Shown here in pieces: positions 3,787-64,000 of a stretch of 64,000 nt of DNA. Made by a program: the position numbers and the translations under genes. This DNA comes from a virus (lineage: Duplodnaviria; Caudoviricetes). The stretch's first letter is position 1. Each line of letters begins with the position of its first letter. The notes beneath the pieces were generated by a model. The model was not told the DNA's origin. It saw only the letters and a list, made by a program, of their open reading frames with translations, and searched no databases. The stretch spans positions 96,163 to 160,162 of IMG/VR virus record IMGVR_UViG_2922690425_000004, one strand, 5' to 3'.

Positions 3787-3827
3787 AGATTATCAAATAA
3801 GAATTTTACATAGAAGGGAATTAAATT

Positions 3828-7806: not shown

Positions 7807-8319
7807 ATGAGTAAGTTATATGAGCTTGGGGAGCAGTATAGAGTATTTAACAATTTTGTAGATTCTGCGTGGGACAATGACGATTTAACGGAAGATGATT
7901 TGCAACTGTACATTGAGACACTAGAATCTATTGAAGATGAGATTAGTAATAAGGCAGAGAATATCGCTAAGTTCATGAAAAACATCGAGGGAGATATCAA
8001 AGCCTTAAAAGAAGAAGAAGATCGACTTGCAAAAAAACGCAAATACCTTCAGAACAAAATAGAAGGATTAAAGAGCTACACTCAAGCTGTGCTAGAAGTA
8101 AATAAAATTGACAAGATAGACGCAGGTCTATTTAAAGTTAGACTACAAAAGAATCCTCCATCCATTAATATTGTGAATGAAAGAGCTATTCCTAATACAT
8201 ACAGAATTCCGCAACCCGATAAGATTGATACCAAGGGGTTATTGGCTGCCGTAAAACAGGGTAAAGTTGTTGAAGGTGTTGAATTAGTGACAGATAAAAA
8301 GCATTTGCGTATTAGTTAG
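7807..8319 (+). CDS. Siphovirus Gp157 family protein
   Basis: MSKLYEL...KAENIAKFMKNIEGDIKALKEEEDRL...LQKNPPS...KHLRI pattern. Confidence 0.9.
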   Translation: MSKLYELGEQYRVFNNFVDSAWDNDDLTEDDLQLYIETLESIEDEISNKAENIAKFMKNIEGDIKALKEEEDRLAKKRKYLQNKIEGLKSYTQAVLEVNKIDKIDAGLFKVRLQKNPPSINIVNERAIPNTYRIPQPDKIDTKGLLAAVKQGKVVEGVELVTDKKHLRIS

Positions 8320-8322
8320 TGC

Positions 8323-8352
8323 AAAGCCTCCTTTAATGGAGGTTTTTTTTAT
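8323..8352 (+). terminator. Intrinsic terminator
   Basis: GCCTCC-TTTAAT-GGAGGT followed by a T run. Confidence 0.8.
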
Positions 8353-8379
8353 TTAAATAAGCAAAAATAATGAAATATA

Positions 8380-8408
8380 TTGATATCAAACAAGATGGAT
8401 GCTATAAT
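8380..8408 (+). promoter_or_regulatory. SigA-type promoter with extended -10
   Basis: TTGATA-N17-TATAAT with TG at 8400. Confidence 0.65.
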
Positions 8409-11400
8409 TGATTTATGGAAAGATACATATCAATTCAAAAAAAGAGGTGAGTAAAATGTATCACTGTATTGGAGTACCCAAGAGGCATTTATTCCATCTA
8501 TCTCACTATGAGGGCTGTGGGGAGAAGTGGGTATTTGATTATGACAAATGTCCGATTTGTAGAGGATACTTAATTCCAGAGTCGCTAATTAGCAAGCAAG
8601 CTAATCATTCTGAAGTTATACAATTGAAAAAAGAAAGTATAGAGGAGGAAAGCAGTTTGCCAAAGCTTCTGTATGAAATTAAAACTTATGAATATGAAAA
8701 TTATGAAGAGTATCTTCAACACGCCGTAGAAATGACAAACAATGGATGGAAATTTCAATCTCAAAGTAACAATCATAAGGAAGTTGTTTGGACAATCGAT
8801 CATAGAAATTAGCTAAAAGAGTTCTTTTATTAAGAAAGGGGAGAATTGGGTATGGGACGCTTCGATAATAATAAACTACAAGTCAACGAAAAGAGAATGA
8901 TTCTTCAACACTACAAAGCTATTAAGGAAACTTTACTTGAGTTACAAGAAGAAACAATGAACAACTTAGATTACTCAGCATTTGAGAGAACGATTGAATT
9001 TATTGATAATAAAGTAAACTTAATTAAGAATAGTTGATGGTCTGTTTCATAAGGAGTTGAACAATGAGAAAAATATCAGAAGCTCAATACAAGAAAATAA
9101 TAAAAATGTTTAACGATCAAGTAAATAAAGAAACGAGCGCGATGACTATCGTGTTATCATCTTGGGGAAGAAATTCTGAATTAGTAAAATTGGAGAATGA
9201 AGCAAGCGCAAAGAAAGAGGAGTTCATTAAACTGTTTCAGTAAAAGGCACGTTTTATAAGTAGGAGGAAATTGATGTATAAGAAGTATTGGAACGAAGAT
9301 GGTAAACAATACAAGATAAAAATTGATGAAGTCAGAGTTAATACAAGCAGAGAACATGGGATGACTTACTACAAACTTGTTCAAAAACTAAAAATCTACC
9401 AGAAGAAAAAATACTGCTTGGGTTGGAAGTGTATTTATATAAATCAATGGGACGAAAAAAGGGGCGAGGATTTAATTAAAAGAATCCGTGAGAGCACTAA
9501 TGATTGCTTCAGTAAATAAATAAAGGAGAGAAATCTTTTATGACTATAAGTGTGCCAATTGAAATTATCAGAAATAATAAAACTCAGGAGTTTATTGAGT
9601 TGCAACAAGTACATGAAAGTTTAGACAACGAATTGAAAAGATGCGCTATTAAGCTGGAAGAATTATATGTCGAATTAAATAAAACAATTAATCCAACAGA
9701 TCGTTATGGTCATTCATACACTTACAACTACGAATACTTTAAGAAACGAACAGCATGGAGAGAAGCGTTGCTTATGCAAGATGCGATTAACGAAGTTGTG
9801 AACGTAGAAGGAGAAATGCAAGAAGTAAATGCGGCATACATAGAAGTCAGAGAGAAACTTAGAGTTATTTATAGAAAATGTGGTATGACAGATGTGGTTA
9901 TTTAAGTGGTGTTGATTTATGTAACAAAAGGAGGATGAATATGTTTTTTGTGGGTCTAGCAGAAATAGAAACTTTTGATGTTGTAGAAACTCCTATTTAC
10001 AATAAAGAGGTTGAAGAGTTATTGCAATATTTTTATGGAGATTACTATGAAATAGCTTTTGTTGTAGAGGGTGAAGCTAAATTTTTTAAGCCGCTATATA
10101 AAGAACCAATTTCGGATCTCCTGAAGAAATGGACATCTAGCTGGAAAGCAGAAGATAATAATGAATATAAAAGTAAACTAGCACGACTAAAAGTAATTAT
10201 TCAGTAAAATGCGTGTTTGATTAAGAATTTAATGTTGTAAATCTAGAGGGAATATGAAGTGATTAAAATCAAAGTTAACACAAGCAGTATTTGTTTGAAA
10301 TGTACACATTTCTGGCATGAATGTGGAGATGCAGTCCAACAGGATGAATACGAATGTCTTGAGACTTGTAGTAATTCAGATGAAGCTATTCAAGAATTTT
10401 TTGAGAATAAACATGAAATAAAAGAATGTAGAGGGTTTGAAAGAGAGTATTAATAAAAAAATAGGAGGTACTGAATGGAATTGGAGTTAATGAAAAAAGA
10501 ATATGAACAAGTGGAATCGGATTACAAATCTGTACTGTCTAGAACGGCAAAATTGAGCATTAGTGAAGAAATGAGTAAACTGAAGCGGAAAATTGATGAC
10601 GAAGAACGTAGACTGAATGCCGAAATAAAGGTTGTAAACATCAATGGAGTTAATTATGAAGTCCCAAATGGATTTGGTTTTTATCGAGAAGTTGATCGTT
10701 ATACATATGAAGTAAAAGATGAATGTTTGTATCGATTTGAAAAGATGAAATTAGATTCAGATGGAAGTTTTCACTTGCACCACCATGTATGGATTCCACA
10801 AAGAGAGGATAAGTTTGTAGATCTCTGTGTTCGTGTTCTGGGTGGTGATAGGTTCGGAGAAAGATACTTTATAAGTGCCAGTTACTATAAGCATCCATCT
10901 GATTCGTTTCCATATATGCACAAGTATGTTCGGACTGACAATTACGGATACAAACCCATCTATTCATATGTTATTGCTAAGATGGGACTAAAGCATAAAA
11001 AGGATAATTGGGACACTAATAAGCTTGAGTGGATTGAAAAGGAGAAGAGAAATGAAGCAGAAAAATGAACAAAGTATTTATGTAGTACAAGGGAGAAGTG
11101 GAATTGTATTTTCTGCAACTTCAAATTACGAAGAAGCCTTAAATGTTATGAACAATTTGAATGAGATGGAATACGGTAGAGCCAGAATGGAACATTGGGA
11201 ACATAATAGAGTTGTGCTTCGGGAGTCGTGATGAATTTATGCAAAGGTGGTGCCAAAGTGGATATTGACACTTGCCCATATTGTAGTGGTAGGCCATTGG
11301 CAGACAGAAAGCCATTAATGAGAAATCACAGTGATGACTATTCAGTTTTCATTAATAGCTGCAATTATCTGGAGGATAGTGTTATTGGTGGAAGCGAACT

Positions 11401-50709: not shown

Positions 50710-51402
50710 ATGCAAAAAATTTCATTATACATAGAGGCGAAATACATGATTAACAAGACTTTAAATTATAAAAGAGATCCTAGCTTGAACAATGAAGAGA
50801 TGATTAAAGAGGCAAAACTAACAAACAATAAAGACATCAGGGATAAGATTATAAATAATAATATTCCTTTTGTTAAAAGCCTAGCTGACCGCTGGTTTAA
50901 ACGTGGAGTTCCAGAAGAGTTTGATGATCTAGTGGGAATGGGAATGGTAGCACTAATGAAGGCTTACGATACATATGACATAAGCAAAAATATTAAATTT
51001 ACTTCATATCTTGGAAAAGTGGTATGGAAAGAATTTATGGCACATTCCAGATATAAAAGCATGAAATGTCGAAGCAAGTACTACAGTATTAGCTTCAATG
51101 AAACACTCCATAAATCAAAAGGAACAGACGAAGAAAAGCTACTTGCTGAAGTTATTTCAAATGACAGTCACCTAGATTATCTGACAGTCGAGGATGAAAT
51201 GTTCAATACACATTTAGTTGAACAAATGGATGCATTGTTGGCGAAGAAGGAAAGAGCTGTTGCTGACAAGTACTTTTTTGAAGGGAAAAGCATATCGGAA
51301 ATTGGAGTTGAACTTGGTGTGTCGCGTCAGGCAGCGCATCAAGCTTTTCAAAGAACAATAAAACGACTGAAACCAATCTATACTAATTGGGAAGTGGTTT
51401 AA
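50710..51402 (+). CDS. Sigma-70 family RNA polymerase sigma factor, sporulation-type (likely start 50746)
   Basis: Region 2 NNIPFVKSLA...DDLVGMGMVALMKAYDTYD...KFTSY; region 4 SISEIGVELGVSRQAAHQ. Confidence 0.9.
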   Translation: MQKISLYIEAKYMINKTLNYKRDPSLNNEEMIKEAKLTNNKDIRDKIINNNIPFVKSLADRWFKRGVPEEFDDLVGMGMVALMKAYDTYDISKNIKFTSYLGKVVWKEFMAHSRYKSMKCRSKYYSISFNETLHKSKGTDEEKLLAEVISNDSHLDYLTVEDEMFNTHLVEQMDALLAKKERAVADKYFFEGKSISEIGVELGVSRQAAHQAFQRTIKRLKPIYTNWEVV

Positions 51403-51592: not shown

Positions 51593-53361
51593 AACTCATA
51601 TTTTACATAGAGGAGATGATCAAATTTAATGGACAAAGAATTATACAGATACACGAAAAAACTAATTAAACAAGCTTTCCCTAAATACAAAAGAATTCAA
51701 GTGGGTGCTACACTAACCGAAGTGTTAATAGAAAGAAGCGATAGCTACACAAAAAAGATTCCTTTAGTGAAATTCACAGTTGTATGCAATTCGTATGGTC
51801 TTTTTACGACAAATAGACATCAAATAAATGTAGCTGTTGATCAACTGACGAATAGGGTCTATTGGAATTTTGAGAGATTGTAATGGACGATTGGAGATGG
51901 GACTGTGATTATATTTTGGATTGGATTTTTGTTTATGATGGCACAAATGGTACACGTAGGAATTTATAAAAACCTAAAGAGAAACTTTACTTGGAATCAA
52001 CTTGGCTGGTTTGTGCTGGGACTGATTGATGGAGTCTTTTTAAAGTATATCCATAATCTTAGATAAGGAGTGCCTACATGAACAAGAAAAAACTTGAAGA
52101 GATATTTTATTCCAAAGAGATGGAACAGATTAGGCTTGATTATTATAACAATGCATATAATCAGGGAAAATTCGATGAAACAATGAAGAAAATGAATCCC
52201 AAAACATTGATCATTATGCATGATGGAGACTTTGAAGTCTGGAAAGGTAAGGTATGGTATTCAGATAAAGATCAGTACAACATTTCAGTTGAGGGTTACA
52301 TGGGGTTTGAAACTATTCAGCAAGGCATTGAGTTATACGAAATGTTTAATGCAGAACTATTGAGATACATAGAACAAAACGGTGGTCTGAAAGGTAGGCA
52401 CGAGTGGAAGAAGGTATATCATACTAGAGCAGTCGAGGTATCAAACGAACATGATAGTTACTGGATTTTTCTTGATGGATACAAATCTGAAGAGATTAGT
52501 GACCTTTATTGGTATATGTGTGATGTAATTGAGCAACTGAAACGGTTAAACAAAAATTTAAATATAACTAAAATTATGAAAGAGGTAGCATATGAAAATA
52601 GTACTCGATTTACTAACTGACAGCTATAACTCATATTCATCAGAAACAATTGATTTTGAATCTTACAGTGATTCTTCGGAAGTGGAGATAAGGTTGGGAG
52701 ACAGAGTGGTTGGTATTGATAAGCAAGAATTAATTAAGTCAATTGAAGCACTATGTAAGTAAAAGATGCATTTTACGAGGAGATGGAACATATGGCTTTT
52801 GATATTGAGAATTATAAAAATGAAACGCAGTACTATATTGATGAGTTTAAATTATGTTCTTACAAGGACGAAGATGGGTTTCCCAACGTTTATGTTGATA
52901 GAGTTTGGAGTACCATAGACAAAATGGATGAGAAGATGAAAGATAAAGTATTGTTTTGGTTTGCGGCAGAACATCTAACATTGATTAATAAATAAAAGGT
53001 AACTTGTAAAATGAGTAAAGGAGATGTAACGATGAAGATTGAACGCGAAGAAGTTGTTTATACGTATGAAACAGAAGAAGAAGGCATTAATCACCAAAAA
53101 CTGATGGAATCACAAGGGTGGAAGATTAGAGACGTTCACCCTTATATATTAAAAATAACCTATGTTAAATAATTCGGCTTGAATCGGAGGTACAAATTGA
53201 TTCAAAACTACATGGAAATCATGAATAACAAGAAAGATTCTAAACAAATTTCAGATGAAGAATATGCAAAATACATAAGCAAGCTATGGCAGTGGCAAAT
53301 AAATAGTACAACAGAATATTATCAATCGGAGGATGATCATTTTTGATGATCAATAATACAT

Positions 53362-53817
53362 ATGAAATTTTTAAATCAAGATGATATTTTTCAAATTTTA
53401 AGGAAATCACTTAAGAAGCATTATGGCAATTTTAGAAGCGAGCCTAAGATTGAAATTGATGTTGATGTAATGGCTAGTAAATATGATTTTTATTCGAGAA
53501 AAATTAATTTTAGTGGAAAGATTGTATCTTTTAAATATAATGAGGAAATCTATAAGAGAAGACTTACTTTGAAAGAAATTGAGGGAATGATTAAATTAGA
53601 GTTAGGTGGAGAAGTAAATGTTGCAGCATACATAAATGAGATTGAAGAAGTCTTAACAAGAGATAGTTACAATAAACACACTGTTTTAGTGGCTACAGTG
53701 ACAAACGAAGAACTTTCTTTAGATAAAGATTGCACCATGACTTTAATCGATATGGCAATCGACATGAACGACAAAGAGTGGTTTATCGAGCTATCAAATA
53801 GATATAAGCAATTATAG
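53362..53817 (+). CDS. IDEAL domain protein
   Basis: C-terminal LIDMAIDMNDKEWFIELS. Confidence 0.75.
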   Translation: MKFLNQDDIFQILRKSLKKHYGNFRSEPKIEIDVDVMASKYDFYSRKINFSGKIVSFKYNEEIYKRRLTLKEIEGMIKLELGGEVNVAAYINEIEEVLTRDSYNKHTVLVATVTNEELSLDKDCTMTLIDMAIDMNDKEWFIELSNRYKQL

Positions 53818-54013
53818 TAAAACATGAAAAAGAAAACTTAATGTTTATAAGGGTTTTATGAATCAATAATCTACGTAAAATCCTGATTTCATTGGGATTG
53901 AGTAGGCTACGGCCTACAGATACATAAAATAAGAGAAGCTACCGTTGAATATCAGAAGCACCTAGTGAATAAGTGTTATGTTAATGGCATTAATCATTTG
54001 ATAAAACATATCA

Positions 54014-54043
54014 GCATGTTGTAGACCATATAAGGCATATACT
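54014..54043 (+). promoter_or_regulatory. SigE-like mother-cell promoter upstream of the phage spoVK
   Basis: GCATGTT-N15-CATATACT versus the SigE consensus tCATAtt-N15-CATAcanT. Confidence 0.5.
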
Positions 54044-54056
54044 GTCACAACGAGAG

Positions 54057-55040
54057 GTGATTACTGTGGATGAAAACTCCAGAAGGATTACTGTTAATGA
54101 ATCAAGAATCAATGTTGTTTTTAAAAGTCAGGAGGCTTATGAAGCAATATCTGAACAAAACGAAGAAATTCCATTAACCAGTAATCATTACGAATCCGCA
54201 GCAGACATATTTAAAGATTTGGATGATATGATTGGACTTGAAAAGGTAAAAGAACTTGTGTACGAAATTTATGCATTGATACAGGTGCAAAAACTTAGAA
54301 GTGAAGAAGGTCTTAAAAGTAGTAATCAGGTATACCATATGATATTCAAAGGGAATCCCGGTACAGGGAAGACGACAGTGGCAAGAATAGCTTCTAAATT
54401 GCTAAACAGAATGGGTATCCTTAGTAAAGGTCATCTAATTGAAGTGGAACGAGCAGACTTAGTTGGAGAATACATTGGTCACACTGCACAAAAAACACGA
54501 GATCTTGTTAAGAAGGCTATGGGAGGTATTCTTTTTATTGATGAAGCCTACAGTTTGGCTAGGGGAGGGGAAAAGGATTTTGGGAAAGAAGCTATAGACT
54601 GTCTTGTAAAAGTCATGGAGGATAGAAGCGATGATTTAATAATTATCCTCGCTGGATATCCAGATGAGATGGAGATGTTTCTTAGAACAAATACAGGTCT
54701 TCCATCCCGGTTTCCAATACAAATAGATTTTCAGGATTACACAACAGATGAGCTAATGTTAATTGCAGTAAAGATGGCATATGAAAAAGACTACAACATT
54801 ACCTCTGATGCACTTATAAAGCTTAGAGAAATAATTCAGATTGAGAAAGACTCAAGAAGTAATTTTAGTAATGCACGTTATGTTCGTAATGTGATTGAAA
54901 AAGCGATTCGACACCAAGCTGTCAGAATAATGAGTAGACGTGTGAAGATTTCTAAGCAAAATTTAATGGATATTTTGCCACGAGATATATCAAATTCAAA
55001 TGTTGAAATGAATAAAAGAGAATCTATCATATTGCCATAA
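54057..55040 (+). CDS. spoVK: Phage-encoded full-length SpoVK-like AAA+ ATPase
   Basis: HMIFKGNPGTGKTT, ERADLVGEYIGHTAQKT, LFIDEAYSLARGGEKDFGKEAID; C-terminal part aligns with the host remnant at 62194-62601. Confidence 0.92.
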   Translation: MITVDENSRRITVNESRINVVFKSQEAYEAISEQNEEIPLTSNHYESAADIFKDLDDMIGLEKVKELVYEIYALIQVQKLRSEEGLKSSNQVYHMIFKGNPGTGKTTVARIASKLLNRMGILSKGHLIEVERADLVGEYIGHTAQKTRDLVKKAMGGILFIDEAYSLARGGEKDFGKEAIDCLVKVMEDRSDDLIIILAGYPDEMEMFLRTNTGLPSRFPIQIDFQDYTTDELMLIAVKMAYEKDYNITSDALIKLREIIQIEKDSRSNFSNARYVRNVIEKAIRHQAVRIMSRRVKISKQNLMDILPRDISNSNVEMNKRESIILP

Positions 55041-55057
55041 ATTGAATTGTATTTGTC

Positions 55058-55115
55058 CATAAAGAACAATCATACTTAATTAACTTAGCTAGAAATCCAT
55101 CGATTGTTCTTTATG
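55058..55115. terminator. 14-bp inverted repeat downstream of the phage spoVK
   Basis: CATAAAGAACAATC-N30-GATTGTTCTTTATG. Confidence 0.5.
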
Positions 55116-55209
55116 AAGCCTCATAAATATTTAAGGGGGTGAGAGGTGCAAAGTATTCATATTAGATTAAATCAATATTTTATAGAAAGAAAACGTAGTT
55201 TGAAGGAGT

Positions 55210-58200
55210 GTGTTGATTAATTTGTGTGAAAAGTGCAATTCGATTTTACTCCATAATCATGTCGATAGGGGTTCAAACTTAAGGCTTAGAGATACAACAA
55301 ATCGAGTGGAAGACCTAATACAAACAGCTTATGATATGGGACATAAGGGAGTTGCTATAACAGATCATGAATCCATCTCAGCTCATGTTAAAGCAATTCA
55401 GGCAACAGAAAAACTGAAGCAAGAAGGCAAGATACATAAAGAATTTAAGCTAATATTAGGCAATGAAATTTATTTGGTGGAAAGCCTTGCAGAAGTAAGA
55501 GATAACTATAAATCTGGAGTTACTAAATTCCCGCATTTTTTGTTATTAGCCAAAGATGAAATTGGTCATGAACAGCTTCGCTATATGAGTTCAAAGGCTT
55601 GGACTGATTCATTTTTCACAGGCCCAATGTTAAGAACACCAACAGAACGCTTCTTTTTACGATCAGTTATAAAGGAAAATCCGGGACATTTGATTGCTTC
55701 GTCTGCATGTTTAGGTTCACCTCATTGCATATACCTTTTGGAGATGAAGTCACATTTAGAAAATAACAATAGAGAAGAAGCAAAAAAGAGCTATAAAAAA
55801 GTATGTGATTTTACAAATTGGTGTATCGAAGTATTCGGAAAAGAAGATTTTTATTTAGAGTTGCAACCTGCCTACAGTGAGGAACAGATTTATTGCAACA
55901 AGCAATTGCTTTTATTGGCTGATAAATTTGATCTTAAATACATAGTAACAACAGATAGTCATTATCTTCGTCCAGAAGATCGTATTGTACATAAAGCTTT
56001 CCTAAATGCAAAAGAAGGAGAACGGGAAGTTGATTCATTTTATGAGGCAACCTTTGTACAAAATCACGAAGAGATAAATGATCGCTTAAGTTACCTAAGT
56101 CACGATGTGATAATGAAAGCATTAAACAATACAATAGAAGTCGGTAACAAGATTAAAGATTATACTATTTTAAAACCAACGATTATCCCTAAAATCGATC
56201 TTCCAAACTTCGAAATTAGTGGATTATTTCGTTCAATTTATTCTCAGTATGAATATATAGATAAAATGGCTCACTCGAATAATAGCCAAGATAGATACAT
56301 AGTAAAATTAATAGAAGATGGATTTAGAGAGTATCTTCCATACAACACCTACTCGAAAGAAAAATTGCATGAAGTAGCCGCTAGGATCAACACTGAATTG
56401 GGCGAACTATGGAAGATATCTGAGAAAATGAATCAATCAGTAGCAAGTTACTACATTACAGTTCGAGAAATTGTAAATGTTATTTGGGATGACGAGTGTG
56501 GGAATAGTTTGGTTGGCCCATCCCGTGGCTCTTCTGCTGGGTACTTAATTTGCTTCCTCTTGGGAATTACTCAAGTCAATCCTTTAGAGTATGGTATCGA
56601 AATGCCGCATTGGAGACACTTGACAGCAGAGAGACCCGAATTCCCAGATATTGATATCGATACTGAAGCAGCAAAACGGAATCAGATCTTCAAACAACTA
56701 AAGAAGTACTTTGGTGAAAACCAAGTTCTACAGGTTTGCACATTTGGTACAGAAGCATCAAAATCTGCTGTACAAACAGCAGCTAGAGGATTAGGGATCG
56801 ATAATGATACGGCTATGTATGTATCTGGACTAATTCCTTTCGAAAGAGGCAGCAGTTGGACGTTATCAGATTGTGTTAATGGAAATGAAGAAAAAGAACG
56901 TAAGCCAGTTAAAGAATTTGTTGCAGAAATAAATAAATTTGATAATTGGCTCAATGTGGCAATGAAAATTGAGGGATTAGTAAATAAAAGAAGTATCCAT
57001 GCTAGTGGTGTAATAGTTTTCAATGAAGAATATTATAAAACCAATGCTATGATGACTGCCCCCAATGGTACTCATGTAACGCAACTTAGCCTAGAAGACT
57101 GTGAAGCCGTATCAAATATGAAATTTGACTTGTTGACAATTGAGGGTTTGGATAAGATCCGTGTAGCATTAGATTTTTTGATCAAAGAAAATCTAATGGA
57201 ATGGCAAGGATCAATTCGCAAAACTTATAACAAGTATTTGCATCCCAATATTATCGACATAAAGAGTCAAGAAATATATGACCTAATTGGTTCGGATAGT
57301 ATAACTGATCTTTTTCAGTTTTCCACAGAAATAGGAATACAAACCGTAAAAAGAACTAAACCATCTAATCTAATCGAACTAGCTGCTGCAAACTCACTTA
57401 TGCGTCTCATGGGTGACCATAACAGCGAAACACCAATTGACAGCTTTATCAGATTTAAAAAGGATATTAATGAATGGTACACGGAATTGCACGAGAATTT
57501 TTTAAATGAAGAAGAAATAGAGACTATGAAGAAGCATTTGCTTGCATTGAATGGAGTGGCAGACACACAAGAGTCTATAATGCTTCTTTCAATGGACAAA
57601 AAAGTGGCAGGATTTACAATCCAAGAAGCAAATAAGCTCAGGAAAATTATTGCAAAGAAAAAAGCAAATGAAATCGAAGACATAAAGAATAAATTTTATA
57701 AGAAAGGCTTGGAGTTAAACAATAGAAAAGAGATCCTAGATTATGTCTGGAATAAACAAATAGTTAGACAGTTAGGATATTCATTCTCTGTGTTGCATAC
57801 CTTGGCTTATTCAATTATCGCGTTACAGGAAGCTAACTTGAATAATATTTACGACCCTATCTATTGGAGAACAGCTTGTTTAACTGTAAACTCTGCTTCT
57901 ATTCACGATGAAGATGAAGATACTAAAACACAATCCACAAACTATGGGAAAATTGCTTCTGCAATAGGGAACATGCAAAGCCGTGGCGTAAAAATCGGTC
58001 TTCCTGATATAAGCAAAGCCGATTATGGATTTTTTCCCGATACAGAGCTTAATCAAATTGTTTTTGGTCTAAAAGGTATCAATGGAATCGGTGACGATGT
58101 AGTTCAGAACATCATTAAACACAGACCTTATAAATCATTTGATGATTTTATTGAAAGAATGTTTAATACCTCAATCATTAAAAAGTCCCAAATAATTCAG

Positions 58201-59154
58201 TTGATAAAGGCAGGTTGCTTTGAATCCTTTGGTAATCGTTTAGAGATTATGAAGCAATTTATACATAAAATTTTTACACCTAAACAAAAAGTTACTATGC
58301 AGAACTTTAATGCTCTCAGTGAAAACAATCTGATTCCTGAAGATATGTCCCAATATAAGAGACTGTTCAATTTTAGAAAGTACGTTACCAAAAATGTCTA
58401 TGGAAAAGAAGGTAAAGAGAAGCTTTACTTGCTCGATAAAATTTCCACTCCTTTTTATTATGAGCACTTTTCAGGAGAAGCTATAAAAGACTATCATAAT
58501 AATTTCCCAATTATAGCAGAACGAACATTCAAAAAAGAATACGATAAAAAGATGGAAGGAATAAAGAGTTGGTTAACTGAGGATACTACTCTGTCTCTTT
58601 TAAACTCGAAGTTATATCAGAATGAGTGGGACAGTTTAGCATCTGGAACATTGAGTAAGTGGGAGATGGACTCTTTATCATTTTACTATACAGAACATGA
58701 ACTCCAAAAAATTGACACATTCAAATATGGAATTGTTAACTTTTTTGAATTACCTGAAGAACCAGTAGTTGTTGAAATAATTCAATATAGAAATGGATCA
58801 ACCAGACCTAAATTCAAATTGGATTTTATTGCTGGGACTGTATTAGATAAAAACAAAAATAAAAATACAGTAACGATTCTTACAACAACAGGTGTAGTTA
58901 CTGCAAAATATTATGATGGTGCTTTTGCACATTACAATAAACAAATATCAAAACCAAAACCAGATGGGACTAAAGAAATTATTGAAAAATCATGGTTTAC
59001 GCGTGGTAATAAGTTGATCCTGTTTGGATATCGTAGAGGTTCACAGTTTAGACCTTACAACTATAAAGATTCTAGAGTTAAACATACCACTATATTTATT
59101 GATGAAATCAGAGAAGATGGCACAGTTAAAGTAATTACAGAGCGAAAAAGCTAA
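55210..59154 (+). CDS. dnaE: DNA polymerase III alpha subunit (DnaE, YorL-like)
   Basis: PHP domain LHNH/AITDHE/TTDSHY, SRGSSAG, FPDIDID, KFDLL, GYSFS..H. Confidence 0.95.
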   Translation: MLINLCEKCNSILLHNHVDRGSNLRLRDTTNRVEDLIQTAYDMGHKGVAITDHESISAHVKAIQATEKLKQEGKIHKEFKLILGNEIYLVESLAEVRDNYKSGVTKFPHFLLLAKDEIGHEQLRYMSSKAWTDSFFTGPMLRTPTERFFLRSVIKENPGHLIASSACLGSPHCIYLLEMKSHLENNNREEAKKSYKKVCDFTNWCIEVFGKEDFYLELQPAYSEEQIYCNKQLLLLADKFDLKYIVTTDSHYLRPEDRIVHKAFLNAKEGEREVDSFYEATFVQNHEEINDRLSYLSHDVIMKALNNTIEVGNKIKDYTILKPTIIPKIDLPNFEISGLFRSIYSQYEYIDKMAHSNNSQDRYIVKLIEDGFREYLPYNTYSKEKLHEVAARINTELGELWKISEKMNQSVASYYITVREIVNVIWDDECGNSLVGPSRGSSAGYLICFLLGITQVNPLEYGIEMPHWRHLTAERPEFPDIDIDTEAAKRNQIFKQLKKYFGENQVLQVCTFGTEASKSAVQTAARGLGIDNDTAMYVSGLIPFERGSSWTLSDCVNGNEEKERKPVKEFVAEINKFDNWLNVAMKIEGLVNKRSIHASGVIVFNEEYYKTNAMMTAPNGTHVTQLSLEDCEAVSNMKFDLLTIEGLDKIRVALDFLIKENLMEWQGSIRKTYNKYLHPNIIDIKSQEIYDLIGSDSITDLFQFSTEIGIQTVKRTKPSNLIELAAANSLMRLMGDHNSETPIDSFIRFKKDINEWYTELHENFLNEEEIETMKKHLLALNGVADTQESIMLLSMDKKVAGFTIQEANKLRKIIAKKKANEIEDIKNKFYKKGLELNNRKEILDYVWNKQIVRQLGYSFSVLHTLAYSIIALQEANLNNIYDPIYWRTACLTVNSASIHDEDEDTKTQSTNYGKIASAIGNMQSRGVKIGLPDISKADYGFFPDTELNQIVFGLKGINGIGDDVVQNIIKHRPYKSFDDFIERMFNTSIIKKSQIIQLIKAGCFESFGNRLEIMKQFIHKIFTPKQKVTMQNFNALSENNLIPEDMSQYKRLFNFRKYVTKNVYGKEGKEKLYLLDKISTPFYYEHFSGEAIKDYHNNFPIIAERTFKKEYDKKMEGIKSWLTEDTTLSLLNSKLYQNEWDSLASGTLSKWEMDSLSFYYTEHELQKIDTFKYGIVNFFELPEEPVVVEIIQYRNGSTRPKFKLDFIAGTVLDKNKNKNTVTILTTTGVVTAKYYDGAFAHYNKQISKPKPDGTKEIIEKSWFTRGNKLILFGYRRGSQFRPYNYKDSRVKHTTIFIDEIREDGTVKVITERKS

Positions 59155-59685
59155 AGGAGAATGACTTAATGGACAAGATGAGCAAACATAAGATTGAAAG
59201 TATTTTGAATCGAAAGCTTAGCGAGAAAGAGTATAAAGAGATTGTATCTATCGTACTGAACAAGCTTCTAGAGGAAAGCAATAATGAACAATAATCTCGA
59301 CAGATTTGAAACTCCATATCAGAAGTATAGATTTCCTGATACACAAGATAAGGAGGTGAATAGGTTTTCAACTTGTGCAGGATGTAATGAAGATATCTTA
59401 GTTGGAGATGAAATATTGATCTTGTTTGATGGTTTGACTGTTCACGATGACTATGAATGCCTAAAGAAAGCAAATGGAGCAAAAAGAATTATTGCAGGAG
59501 AGGAATGGTAATTTGAATTTAGTTGGACATAACATTGAATTGATTAAAGAGTTGAAGACACATACTTTGAATCGACTAAAAATTTACAAAAAGTTGGGAT
59601 TTATAGTTGATGAAAAATATGATGAATTAGTAAAACTAGAAACTGATTATATAAATAGTAGAATTAGAACGATGGAGAGTTTTTT

Positions 59686-60261
59686 ATGAAATTAACATTA
59701 AAACTCCCCTTACCAGTCTCCATTAACGATCTATACATAAATCAATATGTTTGGAATCCGAAAAGTAAAACTAGAGTTCCTTCAGGAAAAAGAATACTCA
59801 GCAAGGAGGGAGAAAAAGTTAAAGAAAAAATAATAGAAGCAGCCAAAGACCAAGTTAGCAATCAGATGTGGGATTACGAATATACAATGAATCATTATTT
59901 ATATATGGATTCGATTATTTACTTTAATCGTAAAGGGCGAGACGATAATAACATTTATAAACTCAATAATGATGCATTAGAAAAGATTGTTTACGATAAT
60001 GACAGTAGAGTATTAACCAGAACACAACGTATCCTTTATGACAAAAAGAATCCTAGAATTGAGCTTACGTTTTCCCCCGTTGAGTATATAGGAATATTTG
60101 ATAACGAGGAAACATACATAGAGTTTTTAGAAAACTGTAAAACATGCAGTAGATATAAACGCAATTGTTCCATTTTAAAAGCTGCAACCGAGGGATACGT
60201 TCAAGATGAAATTATTGAGGGAAACTGCTTCAAATACAAGCGGGCGAAGGTTAATGAGTGA
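59686..60261 (+). CDS. RusA-family Holliday junction resolvase
   Basis: LPLPVSINDLY, RDDNNIYK...DAL....YDNDSRV, NPRIEL. Confidence 0.85.
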   Translation: MKLTLKLPLPVSINDLYINQYVWNPKSKTRVPSGKRILSKEGEKVKEKIIEAAKDQVSNQMWDYEYTMNHYLYMDSIIYFNRKGRDDNNIYKLNNDALEKIVYDNDSRVLTRTQRILYDKKNPRIELTFSPVEYIGIFDNEETYIEFLENCKTCSRYKRNCSILKAATEGYVQDEIIEGNCFKYKRAKVNE

Positions 60262-60340
60262 GTAAAAGTAGTATTTTATAGAAGTGTAGATAACTATTTA
60301 TTGCGCCTTCTTTCAACACAAATAGAAAGGAGGGAACAAA

Positions 60341-60493
60341 TTGAAAAGAAGTAACATAAATATTTTTGAGGTTGCAATACATATTGCTGATAAAGAAGAA
60401 GCCAAATCGATTGAAGAAATAAATAATGAATTTTTAATTTGGTTGGAAAGTACCATGAAAAAGTATTCTCATTTAGTACCAAAAGATATATAA
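60341..60493 (+). CDS. 50-aa ORF upstream of the integrase (candidate recombination directionality factor)
   Basis: GAAAGGAGGG RBS, TTG start, open frame to TAA at 60493; function inferred from position only. Confidence 0.45.
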   Translation: MKRSNINIFEVAIHIADKEEAKSIEEINNEFLIWLESTMKKYSHLVPKDI

Positions 60494-60536
60494 TGAATAT
60501 ATGAAAATAAATAAAAAAACTATTTGGAGGAACTTA

Positions 60537-62321
60537 ATGCTCAGGACTCTAACAGGTTCAGAAAAATTTAGTAAAGCTGAGCTTGAAGCCTTGGTCGCTA
60601 AGATCAAGGCCCTTATTTACGCTCGTGTATCTACTGACGGACAAGTTGATAATTATTCAATCGAGTCACAGATTGAAAGATGCATGGATTTAGCCAAACA
60701 AAAGGGGATTAAAGAAGAAGAGGTAGTTGTTCTAATAGAAGATGGGGAATCAGGTGATAACCCTAATCGCCCAATGATCAACTATGTTTTATTCTTGTTG
60801 GAGTATGGGATTGGTGATCACGTTATTTTTCTACATCCCAACAGAATGAGTCGTTTTCTTCATTTGCAAACACAACTGTCTAATCGTATATGGGGTCTTG
60901 GTAAAGATTTCTGGTTTGTCGAGTTTGATTTTGACAAATCGAGTCCAGAATCAATGTTAAACTTCAATATTCAAGGTTCTATTGCCGAATACAACAAAGC
61001 AAAGATATTAGCAGATACTAAGCGTGGAAGAATTACCAAAGTGAAGAGTGGAAAAATACCCGGATTAAATAGAATTTATGGATATACTTATGATACGGAA
61101 CTAGACACACTAGTTGAAAACCCTGTTGAAAAAGAAATATATCTGAAAATGGTAGATATGCTCCTACATAAAGATTATAGTTGCTCTAGGATTGCCGAAG
61201 AGTTGTCTTTACGAAACGTGCCAGCCCCTAAAAAAGATAGGTGGTATCAGGTTACAATAAGTAGAATATTTAAAAATGAAACTTACACAGGTAATTTTTA
61301 CTTCGGAAAATCTAAAGTAATAACAAATCCTGATGGCACGAAAAAACAAGTTCCACAACCGAGAGAAGAATGGAGGCATATATCTGTACCTGCTTATATT
61401 ACAATGGAGATATACCATAGAATTCAAAAGAGACTTGATGAACTAAATAAGAATAAACCCGGAAGACCCACAGAAGATTATCTGTTACAGGGAATTTGTC
61501 GTTGTGGTAGATGTGGGGCAGCAGTATCGTCGGGTGTGACTACGAAAACTAAAAATGGATTGCTGAAGTATTACGTTTGTCAACATAAAACAAAGAAGTC
61601 TTATAAAGTAGGAACTGGAGAATCTAATCCAATTTGCAAAGGACGCAATTGGAGAGTGGACTATGTAGATAAGATTATTTGGGAGTATGTTAAAAAAATA
61701 ATATCTGAACCAACAGAATTTTTTGAGCGCATAATTAAACAACAGTCAGAAAACTCAAATTCTGATGAATTACTTAAACAGAAAAACAAATTGGAAAAGT
61801 CTCTAAAGGAAACAGAAACATCTCGTGAACGTTATACTGAGATGTATGCTGCTGGAATAATTAAAACAATGAAGGACTTAGAAGATAAAGTGTCAGCCGT
61901 AGATAAACAGATAAAAGATATAAAAGAGGAATTGCATACAATAGAACAAAGTTTATCGACAGTGCTTAATAAGAAAAATCACATTGAATTAGTACAAAAA
62001 TCGCTAAGATCTTTTAAATATTTGCTTGATAACGATCATATAGATATAGAAACAAAAAGAAAAGTGACGCGATTATTTGTGAAAAAAGTTATGCTCAATG
62101 AGGATAATAAAATAAATGTTTATTTACACCTAGGATTTATTGATAACGCCGAGAAAGAATCCGATAATAAACATATAAATGTAAACAGTCGCCAAGGCCA
62201 TGGAAGACCAAAAAAATCAATTTATTTTGATCCTCGCAGGGTATTCGGGAGAAATGGACTTTTTTTTACGGACCAATCCTGGTCTTCCTTCTCGTTTTCC
62301 AATCCAACTGGATTTTCCTGA
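60537..62321 (+). CDS. Large serine recombinase (prophage integrase)
   Basis: IYARVST catalytic motif, DGESG...RP, recombinase domain, CRCGRCG zinc ribbon, coiled coil; GGAGG RBS before ATG 60537. Confidence 0.96.
   Translation: MLRTLTGSEKFSKAELEALVAKIKALIYARVSTDGQVDNYSIESQIERCMDLAKQKGIKEEEVVVLIEDGESGDNPNRPMINYVLFLLEYGIGDHVIFLHPNRMSRFLHLQTQLSNRIWGLGKDFWFVEFDFDKSSPESMLNFNIQGSIAEYNKAKILADTKRGRITKVKSGKIPGLNRIYGYTYDTELDTLVENPVEKEIYLKMVDMLLHKDYSCSRIAEELSLRNVPAPKKDRWYQVTISRIFKNETYTGNFYFGKSKVITNPDGTKKQVPQPREEWRHISVPAYITMEIYHRIQKRLDELNKNKPGRPTEDYLLQGICRCGRCGAAVSSGVTTKTKNGLLKYYVCQHKTKKSYKVGTGESNPICKGRNWRVDYVDKIIWEYVKKIISEPTEFFERIIKQQSENSNSDELLKQKNKLEKSLKETETSRERYTEMYAAGIIKTMKDLEDKVSAVDKQIKDIKEELHTIEQSLSTVLNKKNHIELVQKSLRSFKYLLDNDHIDIETKRKVTRLFVKKVMLNEDNKINVYLHLGFIDNAEKESDNKHINVNSRQGHGRPKKSIYFDPRRVFGRNGLFFTDQSWSSFSFSNPTGFS
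62170..62220. other. Prophage-host junction (attR-type site) inside spoVK
   Basis: SpoVK frame (K-A-M-E-D, AAG GCC ATG GAA GAC) begins abruptly at 62194 and GC content shifts there; the exact crossover cannot be fixed without the other end. Confidence 0.8.
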
Positions 62322-62601
62322 CTACACTGTGGATCAACTCATTCAAATTTCGGAGATGATGGCTAAGGAACGGGATTATATTCTCATGCCTCAGTCTATA
62401 CTCAAAATGAAGGAGCATTTGCTAAATGAGCGGAATGACAGTCTCCATGCATTTAGTAATGCACGTTATGTTCGTAATGTGATTGAAAAAGCGATTCGGC
62501 ACCAAGCCGTCAGGCTGCTTAATCAGTACAGGAGTGGGCAACCCGGCAAGCAGGAATTGATGACGTTGCGACCAGAGGATTTGAAAATGGACAAAAGATA
62601 G
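62194..62601 (+). pseudogene. spoVK: 3' part of host spoVK, split by the prophage
   Basis: KAMEDQKNQFILILAGY...NPGLPSRF...FSNARYVRN; Walker A and B are missing; directly upstream of hflX. Confidence 0.93.
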
Positions 62602-62713: not shown

Positions 62714-64000
62714 ATGGCGAACTCCACTCATGATACACAAACCGAAATGCAGGATAAGGCGGTTCTGGTCAGTCTAATTACGGATGAAGTCAAACGATCT
62801 GGTATCAATACGGAATATTCGTTGGAAGAACTGGTGAAGCTGGCTGAAACAGCGGGAGTTGAAGTGCTGAGCGTCCTCACACAAAATAGGGAATCCAAGG
62901 ACTCAAAATGGTTTATTGGCAAAGGAAAAGTAGATGAATTGCGTGCAGTTGCTGAAGAATTGGGAGCGAATACAGCTATTTTTGATCAGGAGCTCTCGGG
63001 AGCTCAAGTACGAAATCTTGAAGAGAGCCTGGATCTCAAAATAATTGACCGGACACAGTTAATTCTGGATATTTTTGCTCAGCGTGCAAAGACACGGGAA
63101 GGTATTATCCAGGTTGAACTGGCGCAGTTGTCATACTTACTCCCTCGACTGTCTGGACACGGTAAAAATCTTTCGCGGCTCGGTGGCGGAATCGGAACAC
63201 GTGGTCCTGGTGAAAGCAAGCTAGAGACGGACCGTCGTCACATTCGTGACCGAATCAGTGATCTGAAACGCCAACTTGAGGAAGTGACGCGTCATCGGTA
63301 TTTACACAGGGAGCGTAGACAAAAGGCCGGCATCGTCCAGGTGGCACTCGTTGGCTATACAAATGCCGGCAAATCAACACTGTTGAAGCAACTGACAGCT
63401 GCCGATGTATATATTGAGAACCAACTATTTGCGACGCTTGATCCTACCTCTAGAACAATGGAACTGCCGAGTGGCAAAGAAGTTATTCTCACAGATACAG
63501 TAGGATTTATTCAAAATCTGCCTCATGATTTGGTTGCCTCTTTCCGAGCCACTTTGGAGGAGGCCAATGAGGCTCATCTCATTTTACATGTCGTGGACGC
63601 CTCCTCAGACATGCGTGACGAACAAATGAAAGTTGTAGAGTCAATCCTGCAACAGCTTGGGGCTGCGGACAAGCCTCAGATCGTATTGTTTAACAAAAAA
63701 GATGCTTGCACCCCTGAGCAATTGGAAATGCTCCCTTCTGGGGAAGGCTATTTGAAAATCAGTGCTTTTGATGAAGCAGATTTGCTACGCATTCGCGAAC
63801 TGGTTCAGGAGCATCTGAGCGGTGACACACTGAGATTTCGTATTCCTGCGGAACGTGGGGATTTAACATCGGTGCTTTATCGAATTGGAGATGTACTGCT
63901 GACAGAGTATGATGGCAATGATGTCATTTATGAGGTAGAAATTCAAAGAGGAGAATACGAAAAGTATGGTCATTCGCTTAGTGAGTTCACAGAAAGTTAA
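62714..64000 (+). CDS. hflX: GTPase HflX
   Basis: GGGIGTRGPGESKLE, VGYTNAGKST, LFATLDPT, DTVGF, NKKD. Confidence 0.98.
   Translation: MANSTHDTQTEMQDKAVLVSLITDEVKRSGINTEYSLEELVKLAETAGVEVLSVLTQNRESKDSKWFIGKGKVDELRAVAEELGANTAIFDQELSGAQVRNLEESLDLKIIDRTQLILDIFAQRAKTREGIIQVELAQLSYLLPRLSGHGKNLSRLGGGIGTRGPGESKLETDRRHIRDRISDLKRQLEEVTRHRYLHRERRQKAGIVQVALVGYTNAGKSTLLKQLTAADVYIENQLFATLDPTSRTMELPSGKEVILTDTVGFIQNLPHDLVASFRATLEEANEAHLILHVVDASSDMRDEQMKVVESILQQLGAADKPQIVLFNKKDACTPEQLEMLPSGEGYLKISAFDEADLLRIRELVQEHLSGDTLRFRIPAERGDLTSVLYRIGDVLLTEYDGNDVIYEVEIQRGEYEKYGHSLSEFTES

Follow-up and report, generated by a model that had tools for sequence, protein, structure and literature searches.

A split host spoVK and a complete copy on the prophage

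We analysed a 64,000-nucleotide stretch of DNA (the window), which is the last 64 kb of the 160,162-bp provirus record IMGVR_UViG_2922690425_000004 (positions 96,163 to 160,162) and which holds both a fragment of the host sporulation gene spoVK and a complete, phage-borne spoVK. The GC content of the window is 0.31-0.37 up to ~62190 and 0.41-0.46 from there on. To the right, the window runs into DNA of a Paenibacillus polymyxa-group host, and the HflX there, encoded at 62714..64000 on the + strand and continuing past the window end, is 99% identical to that of P. jamilae and 98% identical to those of P. peoriae and P. ottowii. Similarity to the intact P. jamilae spoVK (L097) begins at 62194, at the AAG codon of Lys193, and continues at 94% identity through the stop codon at 62601 into hflX. 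This 3' fragment of the host gene (62194..62601, + strand, codons 193-327) has no internal stops, and a domain search found the AAA lid domain alone in the open reading frame (ORF) at 62200-62601.

Walking outward from the leftmost gene of the provirus record led to attL on an NCBI contig of 1,389,519 bp, where the missing 5' half of the host gene (residues 1-194 of SpoVK) is found ~5.6 kb outside the record's left end. The longest contig with the exact phage SpoVK of the window is of equal length and is probably the same one, and the gene upstream of the 5' half is a DUF218 gene, the usual neighbour of spoVK. This placement gives the prophage a length of ~164 kb; a close relative in a complete chromosome (G046) is ~174 kb long. 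Neither the host 5' half nor attL was present in any of the records of the IMG/VR provirus relatives. At attR, the crossover falls within 62193..62195, in an AA core inside the AAG codon of Lys193, with the host gene cut at 62193/62194; attB, attL and attR have only AA(G) in common, within that codon. The original prediction that host spoVK is split at ~62193 was therefore correct, and both halves are now located. The window contains the right arm of a ~164-kb temperate phage of a P. polymyxa-group host, inserted at the AAG codon of Lys193 of spoVK by a large serine recombinase of the type found in phage Goe14.

The phage-borne spoVK occupies 54066..55040 on the + strand, 7.15 kb inside the prophage from attR, and encodes a protein of 324 amino acids. 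An alternative GTG start is found at 54057, and the ribosome-binding site GAGAGGTG is at 54052-54059. The public annotation, which also begins the 324-residue protein at 54066, conceals the gene behind the name "AAA family ATPase". The protein is 60% identical to the host protein and matches the Pfam families AAA (5.6e-18) and AAA_lid_6 (1.8e-17). An alignment of phage-type with host-type proteins shows no variation in Walker A (GNPGTGKT), Walker B (LFIDEAY), the sensor-1 GY (LAGY), N212 and the arginine of PSRF, or the sensor-2 motif FSNAR. The signatures of the SpoVK clade described by Delerue et al. 2024 (PMC11513918) are the sensor-1 GY, a conserved asparagine that precedes the arginine finger, and a further arginine in sensor-2. 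With the TIGR02881 model the phage copy scores 410 bits and P. jamilae SpoVK 416.9, so that the phage copy and a genuine SpoVK both fall slightly below the equivalog cut-off of 422.95 bits; CbbX scores 271. Judged by its sequence, the phage gene is a true spoVK-class gene, and the prediction of a full-length, diverged paralog with intact Walker A and B motifs ~7 kb inside the prophage holds for all of the AAA+ motifs. Phage G gp596 and Brevibacillus phage Emery gp95 are likewise phage-borne members of the SpoVK/CbbX/EccA clade of AAA+ proteins, but they are far more diverged (287 and 230 bits), are unlinked to insertion in spoVK, and have no known replacements of a host gene. An apparent truncation of the gene, taken from shorter members of its cluster, was discarded, the 270-residue member being a matter of start-codon call and the 297-residue member also beginning inside the same sequence.

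Upstream of the gene, a candidate promoter of the sigE/sigK type lies at 54014..54043 on the + strand, with GCATGTT as the -35 block, a 15-nt spacer, and CATATACT as the -10 block. The arrangement GCATGTT-N15-CATATACT resembles the B. subtilis sigE consensus; a relaxed sigE pattern matches the window here and at one other place, where 0.27 matches would be expected. Both blocks are kept in six relatives, with a variable spacer, and more distant phage copies retain GCATTTT-N14-CATATACTGTCTTAACGAGGTGAT. Host-type spoVK genes have another sigE-like promoter, ending in GAATACATT; the B. subtilis gene has both sigE and sigK promoters. The spoVK genes at the native locus of two other genomes (G057 and G060, discussed below) share the CATATACTGTC..AACGAGGTGAT promoter and the leader of the phage copies. 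The phage sigma factor described next is absent from the non-lysogen species with a phage-type spoVK at the native locus, these two genomes included, so a host sigma factor must read the phage-type promoter there. The SigE-like promoter of the original prediction is thus borne out as far as sequence can tell, with conserved blocks at 54014-54043.

The phage sigma factor gene (50710..51402, + strand) lies 2.7 kb upstream of the phage spoVK, and the nearest host homologue of its product is SigE, at 27-28% identity over the full length. In Brevibacillus phage Emery, a sigma factor gene stands directly before the SpoVK-like gene.

The cassette is preceded by a short hairpin, GTAGGC-TACG-GCCTAC, at 53902..53917 (+ strand), which is found before spoVK in every phage lineage with its upstream region in view (GTAGGCTTCGGCCTAC in L085, G079, G071, G024 and G082). 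Downstream of the gene, at 55058..55115, the predicted inverted repeat is present, with perfect 14-nt arms (55058-55071 and 55102-55115), a 30-nt loop, and two compensatory changes in the diverged relative L085. No classical terminator was found after the phage spoVK, the inverted repeat being without a T-run.

Selection on the phage gene and its spread to the native locus

The phage copy is under strong purifying selection: between phage copies the ratio of nonsynonymous to synonymous divergence (dN/dS) is 0.04-0.07 at dS up to 2.5, and among host genes it is 0.02-0.03. It is therefore very improbable that the gene is a functionless passenger, captured by imprecise excision beside attP and now drifting. 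Its location would suit such a capture, since in the circular phage it lies near int and attP in both of the arrangements found (5.5 kb upstream of int in the window, immediately after the 3' extension of int in P. medicaginis), and one copy has a nonsense codon, but drift is hard to reconcile with such low dN/dS over saturated synonymous divergence, with the invariance of all of the catalytic motifs, with the conserved promoter, or with the phage type being the sole spoVK in several species.

We surveyed 93 species genomes of the genus Paenibacillus. Five have a split spoVK (G046, G013, G079, G071 and G012), and a phage-type copy is present in all five, one of them with a stop codon; in G046 the phage-type copy is the sole full-length spoVK. 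Two genomes (G024 and G082) have a phage-type copy together with an intact host spoVK, and in another five (G057, G060, G068, G094 and G029) a phage-type gene is the only spoVK.

The genes of this last kind occupy the native locus. The identities of SpoVK and HflX to their P. jamilae counterparts are normally correlated, with outliers in G057, G060, G068, G094, G029, P. dendrobii, P. solani, P. apiarius and P. taiwanensis. Most of these outliers are nearer to the phage type, P. apiarius being an exception; the SpoVK of G057, for example, is 57% identical to the host type, as against ~78% expected from hflX. The GC content at third codon positions of the odd native genes, relative to hflX, tends to be lower than in normal host genes. 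In a phylogenetic tree, 12 prophage copies and seven native-locus genes formed a single clade (support 100/99, stem length 1.05), and the prophage copies alone did not form a clade (approximately unbiased test, p = 2e-40, a test weakened by the groups having been defined after the first tree).

The locus of P. dendrobii retains traces of how such a gene could have arrived. Its sole spoVK is an intact phage-type gene. Upstream of it is a relic of the host 5' end (amino acids 1-29 and 55-81), and downstream, just before hflX, an integrase relic (amino acids 519-534) is joined directly to a relic of the host 3' end (amino acids 243-284, with a frameshift and a stop). We read this locus as the fossil of a prophage whose spoVK survived. 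No relics were found beside the odd native genes of P. solani, P. apiarius and G060, and only a weak one was found beside that of G029 (E = 0.008). The phage-type allele appears to have replaced the chromosomal spoVK several times, in P. dendrobii, the G057 clade, G029 and P. solani.

Other species have the phage-type gene, at the native locus, as their sole spoVK, and the gene can therefore very probably do the job of spoVK. Complementation in trans by the phage spoVK in the lysogen is, in our moderately confident reading of the sequences, its most likely function, because the gene is of the spoVK class and can be the only spoVK of a cell. We consider it highly unlikely that the phage SpoVK instead works against the host by stopping or slowing its sporulation, perhaps through poisoned hexamers. 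One preprint (bioRxiv 10.1101/2021.11.12.468384) does report that phage-encoded sporulation-type sigma factors alter dormancy, but lysogens with the prophage in spoVK have no host SpoVK to poison, the ATPase motifs of the phage protein are intact, and a phage-type gene is the only spoVK in species presumed to form spores.

The phage and host genes also exchange sequence. A 62-nt tract of the phage gene (54864..54925, + strand), spanning the sensor-2 motif, is identical at 60/62 positions to the host 3' fragment at 62452..62513 (+ strand), although third-position identity between the two genes outside the tract is ~0.35. The P. peoriae orthologue is less similar to the host tract than the phage tract is. 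In six related lysogens each phage tract matches the host tract of its own lysogen (for L085, 61/62 to its own host and 49-52 to the others), so conversion from host to phage must have occurred more than once. It is not a general feature, as the tracts of G079, G071 and P. medicaginis are at background (only 44/62).

The region of the phage copy equivalent to the attachment site does differ from the host sequence, as had been predicted, with consistent type differences of Thr to Cys, Ala/Ser to Val, and QKNQF to KSDDL. The further suggestion that this region was recoded and so prevents self-integration found no support: its identity to the host (56/80, 70%) is within the range of the conserved gene core (0.63-0.78), and the AA crossover core is retained. 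We accordingly rejected this difference as evidence of design, the 70% identity being no more than ordinary divergence would give.

The integration module and the mosaic surroundings of the gene

The large serine recombinase gene lies at 60501..62321 on the + strand, with a likely start at 60537. Its ORF crosses attR, so that its last 42 codons are host DNA in another frame. The integrase has 606 amino acids in the prophage form and 693 in the reconstructed excised form, and attP is inside the integrase 3' coding region. The 129-residue extension of the excised form, which is an orphan ORF at attL (L178), appears by eye to contain two helix-turn-helix-like segments; in P. medicaginis the orphan ORF of the integrase extension stands immediately before the phage spoVK.

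This module closely resembles that of the SPbeta-like phage Goe14, which integrates at the AAG codon of spoVK, has attP within the 3' end of its integrase gene, and encodes an integrase of different length before and after integration (Kohm et al., bioRxiv 10.1101/2021.11.22.469490). Like Goe14 and the B. subtilis BS155 prophage, the element in the window targets the same AAG lysine codon, has attP in the integrase 3' end, and alters the integrase C-terminus on integration. Over 551 residues, the integrase of the window is 42% identical to that of a Bacillus provirus located at this codon, and the junction of that provirus falls between GTCAAG and CATATGGAAGAC. Unlike Goe14 and BS155, the present phage has a Paenibacillus host and a full spoVK of its own, whereas five complete Bacillus proviruses at the site have none. 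A megablast search of window positions 53000-62190 against the phage collection gave no DNA-level matches. In Alicyclobacillus tolerans BL-1 (L183), this position of spoVK is occupied by an element whose integrase is 41% identical to that of the window, so the site is used in Bacillus, Paenibacillus and Alicyclobacillus. The integration module is thus of a type already known, that of Goe14, and the phage-borne gene copy is the new part.

A full-length homologue with 43% identity in A. tolerans was not counted as phage-borne, since the GC content of the DNA around it is host-like. A typical Paenibacillus spoVK also occurs on a contig (L035) assigned to a Candidatus Udaeobacter (Verrucomicrobiota) metagenome-assembled genome, probably as a result of binning contamination.

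Two consecutive members of a palindromic site family, TAAAA-N6-TTTTA, flank the spoVK unit: site 1 (TAAAATCCTGATTTCA) at 53876..53891 and site 2 (TTAAATCAATATTTTA) at 55167..55182, each with one mismatch. The family has 64 matches in the window, where 19.8 are expected, and AATCAATAWTYTA and AAATCANNATTTTA, which had been considered as separate site motifs, turned out to be partial views of it. In six relatives the 14-nt core of site 2, AAATCAATATTTTA, is unchanged; it coincides exactly with a change in the type of the downstream DnaE, and relatives have 1.5-2 kb of extra DNA or genes on one or the other side of site 1. The two sites therefore coincide with mosaic breakpoints of the relatives, which does not imply a role as recombinase sites. 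The original prediction was right that spoVK is bracketed by sites at 53876 and 55167, but not that they package it as a special unit, for the sites are general mosaic joints and relatives have extra genes between site 1 and spoVK. The gene is one unit of a mosaic phage genome.

Past site 2, domain searches identified a DnaE-like DNA polymerase III alpha subunit (55210..59154, + strand) and a RusA-like resolvase (59686..60261, + strand). A comparison of window 55185-59175 with L081, L083 and L085 shows that the DnaE-like gene comes in two types with ~22% protein identity, which replace one another at one and the same position in otherwise closely related phages. On the other side, the window has merely ~55-125 bp between an IDEAL-domain gene and spoVK, where some relatives (L209, 7439-8658; L081-L084, ~8300-9890) have an actin-like (ALP_N or MreB-like) gene and an ORF of 94 codons.

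The motif TTTTACATAGA has 15 matches in the window against four expected, 11 of the 15 on the + strand (for example at 3804, 11475, 19429, 26851, 34087 and 51601). The copies examined stand directly before a GGAG ribosome-binding site and overlap the right arm of a palindromic site, and the motif may be a phage promoter or translation-control element. An ORF of 50 codons at 60341-60493, with a good ribosome-binding site and no family matches, follows a palindromic site (60263-60278) and precedes the integrase gene; it could encode a small regulator or directionality factor. No directionality factor or sporulation-controlled excision signal was recognised in the phage.

Complementation in trans and excision

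Several prophages or prophage-like elements with a site-specific recombinase are known to interrupt sporulation genes, among them skin in sigK, SPbeta in spsM, gin in gerE and yin in yabG, as described in PMC5499854 and PMC5595907. The prophage in the window likewise sits within the coding sequence of a sporulation gene and has a site-specific recombinase gene at one end. The known elements restore the gene solely by developmentally timed excision, whereas the present prophage also brings a full second copy with what appears, from its sequence, to be a sporulation-type promoter. Repair of the target in cis is known from phages that integrate in tRNA genes and from phage 21 and e14, both in icd, whose attP contains a copy of the 3' end of the target. 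In SPbeta-like phages, a 106-bp duplication at glnA has been described (bioRxiv 10.1101/2021.11.22.469490). By analogy with the tRNA, icd and glnA phages, the damage caused by insertion would be offset by the phage itself. Those phages fuse a duplicated gene end in frame, whereas the phage in the window would act in trans, with a complete gene that has diverged to 60% identity and lies 7 kb off.

The original prediction held that this phage may complement in trans, so that sporulation would not require excision. In its favour are the spoVK class of the gene, the purifying selection, the mother-cell-type promoter, the status of the phage gene as the sole intact copy in the lysogen, and the replacements at the native locus. 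A number of observations weigh against it. Prophages of G024 and G082, related to that of the window and with the same spoVK-dnaE-int layout (rusA was detected in G024), coexist with an intact host spoVK; they interrupt another sporulation gene, ytfJ, have no second ytfJ, and carry spoVK copies as strongly constrained as those of the prophages inserted in spoVK. The copy in the P. medicaginis prophage (~154 kb, with an integrase 72% identical to that of the window), which adjoins attL, has an in-frame TAA at codon 149. None of the five complete Bacillus proviruses at the same codon has an internal spoVK copy. In an AlphaFold2 model built from a 16-row alignment, the AAA+ core is good, but residues 1-46 have a predicted local distance difference test score (pLDDT) of ~30. 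The N-terminal domain of SpoVK is short, with three beta-strands and one helix (Delerue et al. 2024, PMC11513918); that of the phage protein, with its fold at this low score, differs in type from the host's and has only an SR-IN-V/I-V core in common with it. Finally, the two halves of the split host gene are without defects and the integrase is intact, which fits repair by excision as well.

These points could be explained if excision in the mother cell rebuilds the host spoVK, as with SPbeta and skin, and the phage copy, possibly together with the SigE-like sigma factor, is an auxiliary sporulation gene that tunes or secures spore maturation to the benefit of the phage at any insertion site. 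The selected copies beside an intact spoVK in the ytfJ-inserted relatives, the broken copy of P. medicaginis, the Bacillus phages that do without a copy, and the undecayed host halves all agree with this, as do the alternation of the integrase between 606-residue prophage and 693-residue excised forms (as proposed for Goe14), the sigma factor encoded 2.7 kb upstream of spoVK, and the occurrence of SpoVK-like genes in phages that do not target spoVK, that of phage Emery adjoining a sigma factor gene. We nevertheless consider this explanation less likely than complementation in trans, although far likelier than a passenger or an antagonist. Neither a directionality factor nor a sporulation-controlled excision signal was identified, none of the sampled Paenibacillus prophages that split spoVK is without a copy, the decayed loci show a phage copy to be enough by itself after loss of the host halves, and on the tree the ytfJ insertion appears to be derived within spoVK-inserting lineages.

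Since the ytfJ-inserted relatives keep the copy under equal selection with the host spoVK intact, the spoVK copy goes with the phage lineage and not with the insertion site, and the cassette is retained when that site is switched. We do not regard it as a repair kit dedicated to the split gene. The expected link between carrying spoVK and integrating in spoVK thus held in part: all five of the spoVK-splitting prophages carry a copy, but so do the ytfJ-inserted relatives, and the Bacillus proviruses at the site are without one. The serine recombinases of the G024 and G082 prophages are different, with 495-500 amino acids (L196, 3393-5318; L197, 3514-5459), and ytfJ is interrupted at about codon 33. 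An integration locus in ytfJ was not found for this phage group in the literature examined.

With complementation in trans as the favoured function, we propose that the phage carries an old, mobile spoVK cassette consisting of the hairpin, the sigE/K-like promoter, the gene and the downstream stem-loop. During sporulation the RNA polymerase of the mother cell would transcribe the phage gene, and its product would take over the job of SpoVK, which in B. subtilis promotes MurG activity for cortex synthesis (PMC11513918). Spores would then mature with or without excision of the prophage. We infer the timing of expression, the complementation, and the dispensability of excision for sporulation.

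We suggest more tentatively that the phage spoVK could act as a gene-replacement or "addiction" module. The prophage would break the host gene and supply its own, so that any non-precise loss of the prophage would cost the cell sporulation; the prophage might then decay around the retained gene, and the phage-type allele would replace the chromosomal spoVK, removing attB. In the literature searched, we found no account of a spoVK carried by a phage and linked to insertion in that gene.

The interruption of sporulation genes by prophages is a textbook case of developmentally timed excision, and a prophage that brings a working copy of its target would, if the function proposed here is true, be a second solution to the same problem. 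Sporulation would be uncoupled from excision, lysogeny would be stabilised, and a phage allele would be able to take over an essential developmental gene. The species with a phage-type gene as their sole spoVK, the fossil junction of P. dendrobii, and the ongoing gene conversion between phage copy and host fragment are natural experiments on this process.

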